Assembly: GCA_964649715.1 (NCBI GenBank)
Contig: CAZYTH010000002.1
Location: 2,248-66,247 of the forward strand
Source of the DNA: an uncultured Candidatus Saccharibacteria bacterium
GTDB taxonomy: Bacteria > Patescibacteriota > Minisyncoccia > Phycocordibacterales > UBA12445
Reading direction: 5' to 3'
Length of the DNA: 64,000 nucleotides
Numbering within the stretch: position 1 is the stretch's first letter; the number at the start of each line of letters is the position of its first letter. The translations under genes and the position numbers were made by a program. Below the pieces are notes generated by a model. It was not told where the DNA came from. It saw only the letters and a program-made list of their open reading frames with translations, and did no database searches. This document shows positions 10,998 through 56,617 of this stretch, piece after piece.

Positions 10998-11679
10998 CAG
11001 GGTTTATAATCAATCGATTATAAAGGAAGGTAATTCGGAAGGTTTTTTCAATGTTTTTATTTTTAGGAAGATTTCTATACATCTTTCTTGGTTATTGGCT
11101 TATTTAGATATTTCTCCTAATAAAATAACTATTTTTTCTTTTGTAATTGGTCTTATTGCTTCTTTTTTATTTTCTTTCGGTTTTTATTATTACACTTTAT
11201 TCGGTTTATTTTTTTATATTATCGCTAATATTTTGGATATGTCTGATGGAGAGGTAGCAAGATTGACGGGAAAGTTTTCGGAGTTTGGTCATTTTCTAGA
11301 TCCCTTTTTAGATAGAGTTCTTAATTTTATTTTTTTGGGTGGGGTTTCCTATGGTGTTTATGTTGAAAGTGGGAATAATTCAATTTTATTTTTGTATGTT
11401 TTTTATTTAATTTTCTCTTTTTTGAATTTATATTTAAACAGTGAATCTAAAAATCTTGGTGGTTTATCTGGAAAAGAATACCTTATAAAAACTACCCATT
11501 TTATTTCAAATGATAATATAAAAAAATATATAAGATGGGATGGTGGTTTTAGCTGTGTTATTTTAACTTTCTTTGTGCTTATAGACAAACTCTATTATTT
11601 CATTTTATTTTTATTATTTTTTTATATTTTTATTTTTTTAGCTTTATTTGTTGGGATTGTAAGAAAACTAAATGCTTAA
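10972..11679 (+). CDS. CDP-alcohol phosphatidyltransferase family membrane protein
   Basis: DMSDGEVARLTGKFSEFGHFLDPFLDRV matches the D-G-x2-A-R-x8-G-x3-D-x3-D motif; multi-TM. Confidence 0.6.
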   Translation: MKINKKDIDRVYNQSIIKEGNSEGFFNVFIFRKISIHLSWLLAYLDISPNKITIFSFVIGLIASFLFSFGFYYYTLFGLFFYIIANILDMSDGEVARLTGKFSEFGHFLDPFLDRVLNFIFLGGVSYGVYVESGNNSILFLYVFYLIFSFLNLYLNSESKNLGGLSGKEYLIKTTHFISNDNIKKYIRWDGGFSCVILTFFVLIDKLYYFILFLLFFYIFIFLALFVGIVRKLNA

Positions 11680-20339: not shown

Positions 20340-20867
20340 ATGCCAATCGTGGAAAATAAGGATGATTTATCGTATCAGGAATCTGTGTCTCACAGGATTG
20401 GTTTTTGTGAGCAGTTGAGAGAGGGTTATATTGGTTCCATAGTTTTCGTATCTTTTTTCTTTTTGATGAAGTTGTGGGTGGAAGTGACATCTCCTTTATT
20501 TAGAATTGAAGATTTTAATGAGATGCTTGTTTTTTTCTCTTCTTTGATTGTTCCTGCTTATCTTTCTGTGTTTTTGCCTTTCAAGATACTAGGCGAGCTA
20601 AAGAATAATATACAAATAGAAAATGTTTTGGTAATACGAGATGCTTATTCTCACCATTTGGAAAAAGCTACACTTATCGTTTTTGTTTTGGCGCCGTTTA
20701 TATTAACTTTCTCAGAAGTTTTTGGGGTTATTATTTTTATGTCTTATTATACTTTCGTAATTGATACAATGCGTAAGCAAACATGGCAGGAAAGAACAAC
20801 ACTCTTGACTCGAATAGTTGCAATAATATCAATTTGGCTTTCTTTGGTGCTGTTTATTTTCAGGTAG
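20340..20867 (+). CDS. hypothetical membrane protein
   Basis: Four or five TM helices; no recognisable domain. Confidence 0.3.
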   Translation: MPIVENKDDLSYQESVSHRIGFCEQLREGYIGSIVFVSFFFLMKLWVEVTSPLFRIEDFNEMLVFFSSLIVPAYLSVFLPFKILGELKNNIQIENVLVIRDAYSHHLEKATLIVFVLAPFILTFSEVFGVIIFMSYYTFVIDTMRKQTWQERTTLLTRIVAIISIWLSLVLFIFR

Positions 20868-20975: not shown

Positions 20976-21004
20976 TTGCATAATATTTTTGTAACTTATA
21001 TAAT
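20976..21004 (+). promoter_or_regulatory. sigma70-like promoter TTGCAT-N17-TATAAT driving ncRNA copy 1
   Basis: -35 at 20976-20981, -10 at 20999-21004. Confidence 0.45.
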
Positions 21005-21010
21005 ATTTGT

Positions 21011-21124
21011 GAGGTTGATGGTTTGACAGGTTAGGTCGTGAGACATAACCACTCGGTTGCAACAGACCGATAGAATCATTCATCTTGTCAAATATCCTGC
21101 GCAAGTAGGATTTTTTGATTTTTG
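21011..21124 (+). ncRNA. candidate small RNA, copy 1 of a two-member family (second at 53178-53296)
   Basis: Own promoter. Conserved 5' ttgatggtttga.agg; hairpin with GTGA tetraloop showing compensatory changes between copies. Conserved cactcggttgcaacagaccgatagaatcatt, then GNRA-capped terminator stem plus T run. Confidence 0.5.
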
Positions 21125-21220
21125 GGCGAAAAAAATTACATCATCCGACGAGGGAGATGTAATTTTTTCAATTCAATATTTATATTATTATTTCGTTGTG
21201 GAGAGGTTGTGGGTTTTTTC

Positions 21221-22003
21221 TTAAATTCTTTTGCTCGTAAAAAATAAGCCAGACAAAAAAACAAAGAGACAGAATATTGTTGCTATGATTATCTCGTTGT
21301 ATTGTACCGCAAATCCTGCTTCAGATAGATGTTTGGCTAGTATTCCTAAGTAAGCCCATATTAAAACGAGGCCATATGCAACGTTTCTATCTTTAAACAT
21401 TCTTAAGCTACCGATAATTGTCCCCGCGAGAAGCGCCACGATGGTCCATGTTTGTTCGGTCAAACCAAAGCGATCCCATCCGATACTGACCAAGAAAACT
21501 GTAACGTTGGCGATGGTCGCCACCGTGATCCACCCGAAATAGATGCTGAATGGGAACAATATGAAAACTTTTTCTTTCAGAGAAAACTTTTCCTTGTTTA
21601 ATATGTTTGCGATTTTTATGAGAAAAAATAAAATCGCCACGATGCACAAGAGCGACAAGCCGATGACGTCGAAGTGCCATGAGAAGATCCACAGAGTGTT
21701 GGCAATTGAACTGAAAATAAAATTAATTCCTATTTTTTTGAAAAGGACTTCTCTGTCTGCGTCTTCTTTGCTTCGAAAAAAGCCAAATTGGTATAAAGAA
21801 TAAAATCCGAGCATCAGATAAATAAGACCCCAAATAGAAAAAGTGAAGGCTGAGGGAGCAAAAAGATTGGGATAATTATTGGAAACTTCTCCTGTCGTTA
21901 CTCCATTTAAGGGGATGATGTTTGCAAGCGAGTTCGTGGTGATCATCGCCAAATATGCAATGACAACTGATATTTTAATAAATAAATTATTTTTTTTAGA
22001 CAT
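21221..22003 (-). CDS. TspO/MBR-like tryptophan-rich polytopic membrane protein (extended)
   Basis: YPNLFAPSAFTFSIWGLIYLMLGFYSLY resembles the TspO N-terminal block; seven or eight TM helices. Confidence 0.35.
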   Translation of the reverse strand: MSKKNNLFIKISVVIAYLAMITTNSLANIIPLNGVTTGEVSNNYPNLFAPSAFTFSIWGLIYLMLGFYSLYQFGFFRSKEDADREVLFKKIGINFIFSSIANTLWIFSWHFDVIGLSLLCIVAILFFLIKIANILNKEKFSLKEKVFILFPFSIYFGWITVATIANVTVFLVSIGWDRFGLTEQTWTIVALLAGTIIGSLRMFKDRNVAYGLVLIWAYLGILAKHLSEAGFAVQYNEIIIATIFCLFVFLSGLFFTSKRI

Positions 22004-22124
22004 AATTTAATTTGTTATTTAATAATAAAAAAATTGGTGCTCAATTTGGATTTTTTGTTTATCTTTAAAATATTTTCTTGTTATTTTGGTTGGCCGAATT
22101 ACAGAATGATATCTTTCTTTGATT

Positions 22125-23078
22125 TTATTCTAATGCGGAAAAGGTGGAAAGCATTTTATTGTAAACTTCCTCACATTCTTGGTTGTTTAAGATGATTTGG
22201 AACGTTTTAAATTTTAATTGGCTATTTTGTCCTTGGGTTATTTTTTTGTTGTCAAAATAAGATATAGGCAGAGAAATTTTTTCTTGTCCGCTAAAATCCC
22301 TGTATGCCCATGTTGTTTTATAACCACTCAAACCTTTATCGGTCGTAATAGGTTCAATTGAATTTAATTTTTCATAATTTTGTATTTCTTCTTTTCCTGC
22401 TACCTTAACGTATTCATCAAAAGGTAAGTTGTAGTTTCTCTCTGCTGTTTCCCTTGCGTCAATCGTAATGCATTCAGATGCAATGTCATCTGGGCTATTT
22501 AGCGGTCTGAATCCCGATCCTGTACGGGTATCGGGGAATTCTCGAAAAGTCCAATCGCTAGGATAATTAATGCTGTAACCGAATTTGTTGTTTGTATAAG
22601 TCAGTTCACCCGTGTCTTTGGTGATACTGAAAGTCGCATCACTTTCGTCAGAGATGGGGTTGTTTATGGGTACTGATTCGTAACTTGTTATACCAAGGAT
22701 ATAATTGCCTTCAGGATACATTTCGGAAACGTTCCATTCTTTACTCCCTGTGTTTTCTAAGTTAACAAAAATGATTGGGTCAAACTCTTGTCCTTCTTCC
22801 TGTAGCGCGGGTGGAGCTACCCTTCTAATGGTAATGGAAATTTTGTTCGTTGTCGGCATGTTTCTGGTATCCCATTTTATGTTGTGGACAGAACCGCTTG
22901 CTAGAAGTTCACCTCCGTTTGGAGAGATAAGAGTAATAGATGGTTTGTCGCTCTCAATTTCTCTGTTTGCGTATTGTTGATAAGCTAAACTTCCTAAGCC
23001 AATAATGGCGATGAGGATTAAAAATAAAATTAGATTTTTTTTCATATTATATTTATTGCAGGGAGGGACAAATTCCAT
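22125..23078 (-). CDS. secreted hypothetical protein
   Basis: Signal peptide or N-terminal anchor; no recognisable domain. Confidence 0.35.
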   Translation of the reverse strand: MEFVPPCNKYNMKKNLILFLILIAIIGLGSLAYQQYANREIESDKPSITLISPNGGELLASGSVHNIKWDTRNMPTTNKISITIRRVAPPALQEEGQEFDPIIFVNLENTGSKEWNVSEMYPEGNYILGITSYESVPINNPISDESDATFSITKDTGELTYTNNKFGYSINYPSDWTFREFPDTRTGSGFRPLNSPDDIASECITIDARETAERNYNLPFDEYVKVAGKEEIQNYEKLNSIEPITTDKGLSGYKTTWAYRDFSGQEKISLPISYFDNKKITQGQNSQLKFKTFQIILNNQECEEVYNKMLSTFSALE

Positions 23079-23481
23079 TATAAAAATCTATTGTTGGACA
23101 TTCGGTACCGTCTTTGAAAGTGCAAACAGAATTTGGTACGGAAAAAGTTTGACCACCCGACCAGGCACAATAACTTTGATCAATGGTTTCAAAACCAGTT
23201 GTTTTGACTCCGCCTATCGGACAATCTCCTCGCATTAGCGCCCATTCTTCACAGGCTTTATTGTCTTCAAAATAACACAAACCATATTCACCCCCATCGC
23301 CACGTTTTTCTATTTTTAAAGTTCCTCCAACTTCCAAACAATTTGCTGAAGCGGGATTTGAAATATTTAAGACGTCTTTATCGGTGTCTATTTTTTGTGG
23401 GGTTTTTTGATAATAATAAGAGACATAAATAACTAACATAGCGACAATAACTACATAAAATACTTTTTTTGTTTTTTTCAT
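23053..23481 (-). CDS. secreted tandem DUF333-domain protein (putative hemolysin-like Cys-rich domain)
   Basis: N-terminal TM/signal. Two repeats of the ANPAS.NC...GG....G..G.C.F.D...C.EW pattern with conserved Cys. Confidence 0.45.
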   Translation of the reverse strand: MKKTKKVFYVVIVAMLVIYVSYYYQKTPQKIDTDKDVLNISNPASANCLEVGGTLKIEKRGDGGEYGLCYFEDNKACEEWALMRGDCPIGGVKTTGFETIDQSYCAWSGGQTFSVPNSVCTFKDGTECPTIDFYNGICPSLQ

Positions 23482-35273: not shown

Positions 35274-35717
35274 TGCACAAAAATAAATTGTGGATAAGTA
35301 GAAAAAGCACAGGAAAATAAACCTGTGTTTTTTCTATTTTGTGCACCACTTCTGGTATTTATTGTGCACATTACTAACTCCTAGAATGAGTCATAGGAGT
35401 TGGATCCAACCTACAAACGTTCGCTTTGGTCCCAACTCCCAAGGCGAATTTTTGTTTTTCAGGAATCCGCCACTGAACAGAAATGTTCACGTCACCGAAC
35501 TCTTCGTACAAGAGAACCTAATGACGAAAATTGATAGGTGGCATGTACGCCAATACGGATACCTCATCAACGTGCAGAGGAAGCGGTGTCTGAGTGGAGC
35601 AGTAACCTCCACCACCCCTCCCAGCAACCAGTACCTAGAAAACACAAGCAAGAAAGTTGAAGTGAGTCGTGGATACCAAAAGTAACTACTTCCTACTGCA
35701 ATTGAAAGGAATACGGC

Positions 35718-36391: not shown

Positions 36392-36577
36392 ATGAAAAAA
36401 ACAAGCAAAGTAAGTCAATACTGGAAAAGTAGAGCAACCTTCATAAACCAACATTTAGGTGCTGAGGTACAACCACTTACTCCCTTAGAACTAAGAGAAA
36501 TGCATAGTCGAAGCATTAAGAGAGGAATTAGCCATAGAAAATTAAATCCAAAGTTATATGAAAACCCAACCAAATAA
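36392..36577 (+). CDS. small basic protein immediately upstream of and overlapping the recombinase start
   Basis: 61 aa, lysine/arginine-rich. Speculative recombination directionality factor or leader peptide. Confidence 0.2.
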   Translation: MKKTSKVSQYWKSRATFINQHLGAEVQPLTPLELREMHSRSIKRGISHRKLNPKLYENPTK

Positions 36578-38192
36578 CCCAATCAAGTACTTTATTTATG
36601 CCCGCAAGTCGAGCGAGGATAAAGAAAAACAAGTCGCATCTATTGAGGACCAGTTAGAAGTTCTTAATAAAATCGCAATACAAAATAACATTAAAATAGT
36701 ACATGTATATGAGGAATCACAATCAGCCAAAAAACCAGGCAGACCACAATTCACCGCCATGCTCGAACGGATTATTAAAGGCGATGCTAGTGGGATACTT
36801 TGTTGGAAACTTGATCGCCTGGCTCGCAATCCTATTGATGGTGGGCAGATAAACTGGCTACTTCAACAAGGAACAATACAAATTATTAAAACAAACGAGC
36901 GAGATTACTACCCAAGCGACAACGTTTTGATGATGCAAGTTGAACTTGGTATGGCTAACCAATACATTCGAGACCTTTCATCAAATGTAAAGCGTGGGCT
37001 CGCTAAGAAATTACGTGATGGCTGGTTACCAGGTCTTGCACCTATCGGATACTTAAACGATCGAACAAACGAAAAAGGAAATCGCACAGTTATGAATGAT
37101 CCTGATAGATTTGTACTGGTTCGTAGAATATGGGACCAAGCACTTACTGGTAATTACACAGTGCCTCAGTTATGGGAGTACTCGAGAAAAGAATTGAATC
37201 TAACAACCGTACTAAGACGAAAGTCTGGAGGTAAGCCATTATCAAAAAGCGCAATGTATTCATTACTCACTAACCCGTTTTATTACGGAATGATTCGGTA
37301 TCCTGAAAAGACTGGTGAACTACATCAAGGTAAACACGAACCAATGATAACGGTCCAAGAATTTGACCGTGTACAAGACATAATTGGCACTCGTAACGCA
37401 ATACGACCTAAGAATGAAGTGTTTGCTTTTACTGGTCTTATGAGGTGCGGTAACTGCGGTTGCTCAGTAACTGCTGAAAGTAAAATAAAGCGATGTAAGA
37501 ATGGAAATTCGCATTACTATACCTACTACCATTGCACTAAAAAGAAAGTCGACATTAAATGCGATCAAAAAAGTGTAGAGGTACGTAAACTAGAGACTAT
37601 GTTCAAAGAGAAATTGATGAACTTGCAAATCTCAGATGCGTTCAAAGCATGGGCAATAAAACATTTGCACGAAATAAGAACCACTGAGGCAGATAGCAAC
37701 AAAATAGCAATGAGTGTGGCATCCAAAGAACTCGCAACCGTGTCAGAGCAACTAAGAGCACTAACTTTGAATTACACATCACCACAGAACATAAACAGAT
37801 CGATAATGACCGAGAGTGAATACTTGGAATTTAAGAATGACCTATTAAAAAAGAAAGAGACCGCAGAGAGTCGAGTTAAAACAACATCAGACGAACTCGA
37901 GTCTTGGGTTGAACTTAGTGAAAAAACTTTTAATCTAGCGTTCTATGCGAGTGTTTGGTTTGAAAAAGGAACGAACGAACAACGTAAAGCAATAATGTCG
38001 TGTTTAGGCTCGAACCTCACACTGAAAGATGGAAAAATCCAACTATACATGCATCCTTTCATTGAAACGCTTATTCAAAACAAAAAATATGTCACTATTG
38101 AGAATCCAAAGGTTAGAACCTCTGAAAACTCAATGTACATAAGACAAAACGCCGCTTTAGGCGACGTTTCATCAAAGTGGCTCCGCGGGTAG
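36558..38192 (+). CDS. large serine recombinase (resolvase-domain integrase)
   Basis: YFIYARKSSEDKE...IEDQ resolvase N-domain with catalytic Ser. Recombinase domain and CGNCGC...YYHC zinc-ribbon. The 3' end overlaps tRNA-Asn. Confidence 0.85.
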   Translation: MKTQPNNPIKYFIYARKSSEDKEKQVASIEDQLEVLNKIAIQNNIKIVHVYEESQSAKKPGRPQFTAMLERIIKGDASGILCWKLDRLARNPIDGGQINWLLQQGTIQIIKTNERDYYPSDNVLMMQVELGMANQYIRDLSSNVKRGLAKKLRDGWLPGLAPIGYLNDRTNEKGNRTVMNDPDRFVLVRRIWDQALTGNYTVPQLWEYSRKELNLTTVLRRKSGGKPLSKSAMYSLLTNPFYYGMIRYPEKTGELHQGKHEPMITVQEFDRVQDIIGTRNAIRPKNEVFAFTGLMRCGNCGCSVTAESKIKRCKNGNSHYYTYYHCTKKKVDIKCDQKSVEVRKLETMFKEKLMNLQISDAFKAWAIKHLHEIRTTEADSNKIAMSVASKELATVSEQLRALTLNYTSPQNINRSIMTESEYLEFKNDLLKKKETAESRVKTTSDELESWVELSEKTFNLAFYASVWFEKGTNEQRKAIMSCLGSNLTLKDGKIQLYMHPFIETLIQNKKYVTIENPKVRTSENSMYIRQNAALGDVSSKWLRG

Positions 38193-38252
38193 GATTCGAA
38201 CCTACGACCAACCGCTTAACAGGCGGTCGCTCTACCACTGAGCTACCGCGGA
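38178..38252 (-). tRNA. tRNA-Asn (anticodon GUU), CCA encoded
   Basis: Reverse complement tccgcggtagctcagtggtagagcgaccgcctGTTaagcggttggtcgtaggttcgaatcctacccgcggagcca folds as a cloverleaf. 7-bp acceptor stem; ctgttaa anticodon loop. Confidence 0.85.
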
Positions 38253-53040: not shown

Positions 53041-53142
53041 TTCTTACATTTTACCAACAAAAAGATTTATTGGCTATTTTTTTGCAATATTCTTGAAATC
53101 ATTGTCCAACATCTTTTTAAAAGTTATCCACAGCTAAATTAG

Positions 53143-53171
53143 CTTGATTTTTTTTATCACTACTTTATAAT
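53143..53171 (+). promoter_or_regulatory. sigma70-like promoter TTGATT-N17-TATAAT driving ncRNA copy 2
   Basis: -35 at 53143-53148, -10 at 53166-53171. Confidence 0.45.
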
Positions 53172-53177
53172 TATGAA

Positions 53178-53296
53178 TAGATTGATGGTTTGATAGGTTG
53201 TGTCGTGAGACACAGTCACTCGGTTGCAACAGACCGATAGAATCATTTTATCTCGTCGAGAAGTTCCGGGTCAAACCGGGGCTTTTTGATTTTTGG
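53178..53296 (+). ncRNA. candidate small RNA, copy 2 of the family at 21011-21124
   Basis: Same conserved 5' and central blocks. Hairpin tgtgtc-GTGA-gacaca versus ttaggtc-GTGA-gacataa in copy 1. Own terminator ccgggtcaaaccgggg plus T run. Confidence 0.5.
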
Positions 53297-56508: not shown

Positions 56509-56617
56509 TTCTTTATTTTTTTAAATGAATATAAAATCGACCAGATTTATTTGTGCTATTCTGATGTGAATTATAACTTTTATTTTATAAAAATTAAAAA
56601 TAGTTATCCACAGATAA

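Follow-up and report, generated by a model that had tools for sequence, protein, structure and literature searches.

Two copies of a candidate structured small RNA gene with a predicted three-way-junction fold in a putative CPR genome

The window (the whole 64,000-nucleotide stretch of DNA analyzed here) contains two copies of what appears to be a small RNA gene, and two further members of the same family are found on metagenome contigs. Judging from sequence and from modeled folds, we favor, at a probability of about 0.5, the reading that the loci are separate genes, each encoding a structured small RNA of ~105-112 nt that acts in trans and binds a partner through its junction and loops. The three-way-junction structure itself is well supported as a prediction; transcription, action in trans, and partner binding are what we infer.

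Both copies lie on the plus strand, with the following features.

20976 to 21004, plus strand: promoter of copy 1, with -35 TTGCAT at 20976-20981, a 17-nt spacer, and -10 TATAAT at 20999-21004
21012 to 21119, plus strand: predicted transcript of copy 1 (~105-112 nt), beginning with the first base of P1 and ending at the terminator U-run/GAU
21012 to 21024, plus strand: 5' strand of P1 in copy 1, with outer AGGU, a bulged U, and inner GAUGGUUU; its partner is 21073-21086
21029 to 21050, plus strand: P2 hairpin of copy 1, GGUUAGGUC-GUGA-GACAUAACC, with its GNRA loop (21038-21041) and a single G-A mismatch
21053 to 21070, plus strand: P3 hairpin of copy 1, UCGGUU-GCAACA-GACCGA, with the loop at 21059-21064; GUUGCAAC is an 8-nt palindrome
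21073 to 21086, plus strand: 3' strand of P1 in copy 1, GAAUCAUU, a bulged C, and AUCUU
21087 to 21124, plus strand: putative intrinsic terminator of copy 1, an extended hairpin GUCAAAUAUCCUGC-GCAA-GUAGGAUUUUUUGAU followed by UUUU
53119 to 53136, plus strand: upstream element AAAAGTTATCCACAGCTA, which contains the perfect DnaA box TTATCCACA and abuts the -35 of copy 2
53144 to 53171, plus strand: promoter of copy 2, with -35 TTGATT, a 16-nt spacer, and -10 TATAAT (10 of 12 consensus matches)
53179 to 53290, plus strand: predicted transcript of copy 2, with P1 at 53179-53191 paired with 53240-53253, P2 at 53196-53217, P3 at 53220-53237, and the terminator at 53255-53290

A preliminary description of copy 1 had placed a promoter TTGCAT-N17-TATAAT about 7 nt before AGGTTGATGG, and a GNRA-capped 7-bp terminator stem with TTTTTTGATTTTT at the other end of the gene, and both are indeed there: the promoter is present in the sequence and AGGTTGATGG starts 7 nt past its -10; a consensus scan scores 10 of 12 matches if the promoter is read as TTTGCA-18-TATAAT; and the 7-bp stem of the terminator scan occupies 21094-21111 (ATCCTGC-GCAA-GTAGGAT), followed by the T-rich tail TTTTTTGATTTTT. 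When copy 1 is folded by itself the terminator has 13 pairs with a mean pair probability of 0.96. Copy 2, for which 53178-53296 had been given, is found at 53179-53290, with 7 nt from the end of its -10 to the A at 53179, and its terminator hairpin has 15 pairs followed by TTTTGG. The common blocks already pointed out, TTGATGGTTTGA.AGG and the 31-nt CACTCGGTTGCAACAGACCGATAGAATCATT, occur in both copies, the 31-nt block without a single difference; over the compared stretches mean column identity is 82%, and the exact 24-mer GGTTGCAACAGACCGATAGAATCA occurs 2 times in the window where 0.00 occurrences are expected from 100 shuffles. A covariance model (R1) of the core alignment, with 81 positions and 28 pairs, scores copy 1 at 96.4 bits (E=6e-25), copy 2 at 98.4 bits (E=1.6e-25), and all four members at 90-106 bits. 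Run over the window with filters off, R1 finds no further copy; the next best score is 16.6 bits (E about 0.04) at 11063-11122, a P1-like hairpin only, which is located inside a coding region and which we reject as a member. The genome carries at least two paralogs of the candidate RNA gene.

No coding gene follows copy 1 on the same strand, just as had been stated: the stretch from 21221 to 23481 has minus-strand genes only (21221-22003, 22125-23078, and 23053-23481), and a convergent TspO-like gene faces copy 1. The DNA between copy 1 and the TspO-like gene holds a perfect inverted repeat of 13 bp, AAAAAATTACATC / GATGTAATTTTTT, with A and T runs on its flanks (21130-21168); it looks like a bidirectional intrinsic terminator. 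Upstream, copy 1 is adjoined by a gene for a predicted membrane protein of 175 amino acids (20340-20867), for which a search of 5.8 billion clustered proteins matched only the protein itself.

The two members outside the window came from a pattern scan of public metagenome collections, using a degenerate pattern in which the P3 stem was free to change by transitions. They lie at about 2712-2820 of contig L001 and about 894-1005 of contig L002, and these contigs are unrelated and have no neighboring genes in common. At 1020-1050 of L002, TGCTATAAT is located only 7 nt before the ATG of the downstream gene, VIT1/CCC1-like as judged by eye, which implies a leaderless or nearly leaderless mRNA for that gene. 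Other searches brought no further members. The pattern AGGTT..GNRA..GCAACAG..TAGAATCA had a single match in GTDB (one genome per species), inside a coding region, and we regard it as due to chance; so too the viral-contig matches from two scans, one of which reads as coding sequence and two of which are unmatched by R1. No relatives of the candidate RNA were found among phage sequences by blastn, nor by R1 in about 150 kb of loci from distantly related Patescibacteria, fetched through homologs of the TspO-like neighbor of copy 1 and of the SIMPL neighbor of L002 (the nearest being 60-76% identical); nor was a copy found by eye in the intergenic regions 3' of the SIMPL gene in two loci (L015 and L016). 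A literature search found nothing on such an RNA in Patescibacteria. The known family is thus four sequences in size, and more divergent members are possible, as the scans of large collections matched exact patterns.

Comparison of the four loci defines the limits of the unit. Specifically, i) every locus has a near-consensus sigma-70 promoter, with 7-8 nt separating the end of the -10 from the AGG at the start of P1, and the promoter, the 5' end of P1, and the terminator occupy the same relative positions throughout; ii) pairwise identity is 0.74-0.93 in the core and 0.61-0.81 in the terminator, but 0.41-0.64 in the 100 nt further upstream and 0.49-0.63 in the 75 nt downstream, which is the background for AT-rich DNA; iii) the neighboring genes are different at each locus; and iv) the G+C content of the core is 0.42-0.46 in three copies and 0.38 in L001, compared with ~0.35 for the window. 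Because identity drops outside it and the neighbors differ from locus to locus, the conserved unit is exactly the predicted transcript. The small RNA gene reading of the preliminary description is supported by two homologs, by gene-like boundaries in register, and by the lack of an Rfam family for any copy.

The four members resemble one another in a mosaic fashion. In the core, copy 1 goes with L002 (0.93), in the terminator copy 1 goes with L001 and copy 2 with L002, and in the upstream region copy 2 goes with L001, which suggests recombination or gene conversion between paralogs. Mosaic similarity of this sort would also be at home in a DNA-level or selfish repeat, be it a dispersed promoter-terminator cassette, a MITE-like element, or a mobile remnant, whose fold is incidental, as would the four unrelated genomic contexts without synteny and the DNA palindrome GTTGCAAC. 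We nonetheless consider such a repeat improbable: neither copy 1 nor copy 2 is bounded by terminal inverted repeats or other flanking repeats; conservation runs from the predicted +1 to the terminator, unlike the ends of an element; the substitutions keep the RNA paired; the copies are 74-93% identical, whereas recent transposition would give near-identical ones; and there is no transposase or recombinase nearby, the nearest recombinase being more than 13 kb away.

The full three-way junction is the single-sequence minimum free energy (MFE) structure of copy 1, copy 2, and L002, and is also returned by RNAalifold on the four-sequence alignment; the MFE structure of L001 has P2, P3, and the terminator only, P1 being weak and absent from it. 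The MFE is -38.2 kcal/mol for copy 1 (z=-4.46 relative to 200 shuffles) and -45.1 kcal/mol for copy 2 (z=-5.21), and the core alone of these two copies gives modest z values of -2.3 and -1.5 against shuffles. In the predicted structure, P1 consists of an outer 4-5 bp, a bulge, and the inner GAUGGUUU/GAAUCAUU helix with three conserved G-U pairs; P2 has 9 bp capped by GUGA, fully paired in copy 2 and L002 but with one mismatch in copy 1 and two in L001; P3 has 6 bp (UCGGUU-GCAACA-GACCGA); and the helices are joined by the short strands GAYA (J1/2), AC (J2/3), and UA (J3/1). The terminator is a hairpin of 13-15 bp conserved in all four sequences, in the lower part of which an A-rich 5' strand pairs with the U-run and (G/A)UC with GAU. 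No conserved run of unpaired bases is longer than 6 nt. The top of P3 together with its loop, GTTGCAAC, forms an 8-nt palindrome in both copies (21057-21064 and 53224-53231), and could serve for loop-loop dimerization of the RNA or as a pair of DNA operator half-sites.

Substitutions among the four sequences largely respect this fold. In the core alignment 94.6% of pair cells are standard, a share that falls to 34-52% if the 3' partners are shifted by 1-3 columns, and three core pairs are changed on both sides and still paired: 6-76 (G-C / A-U / G-U), 46-61 (C-G / U-A), and 48-59 (G-C / A-U). RNAalifold, with the terminator included, counts six double-changed pairs, three in the core and three in the terminator. 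Homologs with structure-preserving variation, which the preliminary description had named as a check, are provided by L001 and L002, where such variation is seen in P1, P3, and the terminator. The compensatory P2 hairpin that it had claimed from copies 1 and 2 holds in part: one pair is changed on both sides (A-U to G-C, columns 25/38), two others are changed on one side only, to G-U, and copy 1 has a mismatch (G-A) where copy 2 has U-A. Better compensatory evidence comes from outside the window, in the P3 stem of L001, which reads UUGAUU/GAUCAA rather than UCGGUU/GACCGA and differs in two pairs changed on both sides; pairing is kept there by compensatory substitutions, and what is conserved is therefore structure rather than sequence. 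Overall the covariation is suggestive and statistically not significant over four sequences (n=4), as 17 of 500 shuffled controls reach the observed percentage paired and 92 of 500 the observed double changes.

The same substitutions bear on another reading, in which the conserved stretch encodes a small protein on the minus strand. In all four sequences the core is covered by an ATG (CAT in GAATCAT, reverse-complemented) and ~22 open codons, in a frame beginning MILSVCCNRV... which reaches 62 amino acids in L002. Yet the variable columns are distributed as 6, 9, and 4 over codon positions 1, 2, and 3, with no third-position excess, and most of the changes alter the amino acid while keeping the RNA helices paired. 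The frame also runs into non-conserved promoter DNA and ends in unrelated tails of differing lengths, no minus-strand frame of at least 40 amino acids covers copy 2, and reading the sequence by eye revealed neither a conserved, well-spaced Shine-Dalgarno nor a minus-strand promoter. We think a minus-strand gene extremely improbable; on the plus strand, no reading frame is open in all copies.

Most of the variation is in the helices: variable positions make up 20 of the 55 paired columns but just 1 of the 18 in the junction and hairpin loops (Fisher p = 0.015), a comparison to be read with the caution that 8 of those 18 'invariant' unpaired positions, namely the P3 loop and TAGAATCA, were fixed by the search pattern from which the outside members came. 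Invariance could also be the mark of a trans-acting base-pairing sRNA, in which the 31-nt block or the P3 loop would pair with an mRNA or engage in kissing, the junction serving to present the seed. The main rival to the reading we favor is that the RNA acts by base pairing, or by kissing at the P3 loop, although we judge this unlikely. A promoter of its own and an intrinsic terminator with a U-tail are, as motifs, the usual anatomy of regulatory sRNAs; a long sequence-invariant block is common to the paralogs; paralogous pairs are frequent among base-pairing regulators; and GUUGCAAC, spanning the P3 loop, is palindromic over 8 nt, so that homo- or heterodimers could conceivably form by kissing. 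The invariant block is, however, almost wholly paired in the predicted fold, leaving conserved unpaired runs of at most 6 nt, and the P3 stem within it changes compensatorily in L001. Nor does a search for targets in the 64-kb window favor base pairing: k-mers of at least 10 nt complementary to the block are not above chance, and the best duplex, at -25.1 kcal/mol, falls within the range of -23.5 to -28.8 kcal/mol for shuffled blocks.

An invariant three-way junction directly before a terminator would also suit a transcriptional OFF-riboswitch or attenuator acting in cis, with the junction as aptamer and the terminator as expression platform for a downstream gene on the same strand, and same-strand features do lie downstream at three of the four loci (a DUF3592 gene at copy 2, the VIT1/CCC1-like gene, identified by eye, in L002, and a tRNA in L001). 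But these are mutually unrelated, and the genes after copy 2 and L002 have promoter-like sites of their own; what comes after copy 1 is a further hairpin terminator and then a convergent gene; no antiterminator pairing is predicted, the terminator having a probability of 0.96-0.99; forcing the 5' strand of P1 to be unpaired leaves the terminator unchanged in all four sequences; and no Rfam riboswitch family is matched. Because the terminator forms regardless of P1, and copy 1 faces a convergent gene, the RNA is probably not a leader or riboswitch, and we hold a cis-acting role to be very improbable.

Rfam 15, run at gathering thresholds over the whole window, identifies two tRNAs only. Even at E<=10, copies 1 and 2, L001, and L002 give nothing beyond scattered matches of 12-18 bits (miRNA, snoRNA, terminator-only), none of them common between copies; this agrees with the earlier failure to match the RNA to SRP, 6S, tmRNA, or RNase P, as Rfam 15 offers no matching family for any of the four. 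The likeness to the bacterial small SRP RNA (4.5S, RF00169) deserves comment. The two are of similar size, and the 5' strand of P2 with its loop in copy 1, CAGGUUAGGUC-GUGA, resemble the GNRA-capped helix of E. coli 4.5S domain IV, which reads CAGGUCAGGUCC-GGAA. The AGGUC of copy 1 is, however, GUGUC or GCUUC in the other three, limiting the likeness to copy 1; the 5' AGG is present in copy 1 only and the 3' AGCA in none of the four; P2 is perfect in copy 2 and L002; SRP RNA is one long hairpin with internal loops, whereas the candidate is a three-way junction; a second SRP RNA copy within 64 kb would be unusual; and cmscan finds no match. We reject 6S RNA (RF00013) as well, a ~180-nt irregular hairpin with a central bubble compared with a junction and terminator of ~110 nt, and the hammerhead ribozyme, whose core CUGANGA ... 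GAAA ... UH is unlike the junction strands GAYA, AC, and UA; neither is matched by cmscan.

Known three-way-junction aptamers include the purine (RF00167) and c-di-GMP-I/GEMM-I (RF01051) riboswitches, the latter with a GNRA tetraloop on one arm. The candidate is like them in that P1 closes two arms, the stems are variable but the junction and loops conserved, a GNRA loop caps one of the arms, and a terminator comes next; it differs from them in its much shorter junction strands (4, 2, and 2 nt), and in having no match at E<=10, no antiterminator, and no consistent downstream gene. With stand-alone sRNA genes it has in common a sigma-70 promoter of its own in register, a terminator with a U-run, an intergenic location, a length of ~110 nt, and paralogs, but unlike them it has no long accessible seed and is almost all helical with a compact invariant junction. 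Orphan structured ncRNA motifs of the Breaker/Weinberg type have been found by comparative genomics of GC-rich intergenic regions; the candidate resembles these as a well-folded stretch, enriched in GC, between the genes of an AT-rich genome, with a conserved fold and a few compensatory changes, although it has only 4 representatives and a much narrower known distribution than the published motifs. We regard the family as new, within the familiar kind of stand-alone structured bacterial sRNAs, and its known distribution is very narrow.

The upstream element of copy 2 may provide a link to regulation. L001 has the identical 18-nt AAAAGTTATCCACAGCTA at about 2653-2670, at the same distance from the start of the RNA, even though copy 2 and L001 are the most divergent pair in the core (0.74 identity); the element is absent from copy 1 and L002. 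A DnaA-box element upstream of two members is a candidate regulatory input. Other perfect DnaA boxes in the window are intergenic, at 35289-35297 (minus strand) and 56604-56612 (plus strand), the latter also reading AGTTATCCACAG, and the count of boxes with one mismatch or none is 36 over the window, compared with 19.4 +/- 4.8 in shuffles. GC skew is positive over most of the window, and therefore no origin is evident.

In other respects the window is an ordinary bacterial chromosome of about 35% G+C, encoding a Mur ligase, an H+-pyrophosphatase, a ClpX/ClpB-type AAA+ ATPase, a P-type ATPase, and two tRNAs. The gene for a large serine recombinase (36558-38192, plus strand) slightly overlaps tRNA-Asn (38178-38252, minus strand), the typical signature of a mobile element integrated at a tRNA gene. 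Homologs of the TspO-like neighbor of copy 1 (annotated 'tryptophan-rich sensory protein') are at most 60-65% identical, and those from named organisms are mostly from Patescibacteria (Falkowbacteria, Shapirobacteria, and Pacebacteria), so that assignment to the CPR, made from the names of homologs of neighboring genes, seems reasonable. The lineage is poorly sampled, because these homologs are distant and all six window proteins looked up (6 of 6) are singletons at 90% identity.

Under the reading we favor, a trans-acting structured RNA, the sigma-70 promoter would start transcription at the first base of P1; the RNA would fold into the three-way junction, P1 closing the 5' end onto the segment before the terminator; the constitutive intrinsic terminator would release the transcript; the RNA would act in trans and not upon the adjacent gene; and the folded junction and loops would present a surface to which a protein or, less likely, a small ligand binds. 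We prefer a binding surface to a linear seed because most of the sequence change is in the helices, the junction and loops hardly vary, and unpaired runs do not exceed 6 nt. A bolder proposal, to which we give little credence, is that the family represents a compact three-way-junction RNA class of little-sampled Patescibacteria, a free-standing sensor or cofactor of which at least one paralog is wired to DnaA.

To our knowledge, few if any regulatory or structural RNAs have been described in Patescibacteria/CPR beyond the universal ones. If the RNA is merely a narrow-range sRNA, its value would lie mainly in annotation of the lineage; if instead it is an orphan aptamer or a protein-regulating RNA with a paralog wired to DnaA, it would tie some downstream process to the state of DnaA, in organisms for which very few regulators are known. 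Small enough for direct biochemistry, a duplicated, tightly folded, stand-alone RNA with an invariant junction would be a concrete candidate for lineage-specific RNA regulation in reduced genomes.
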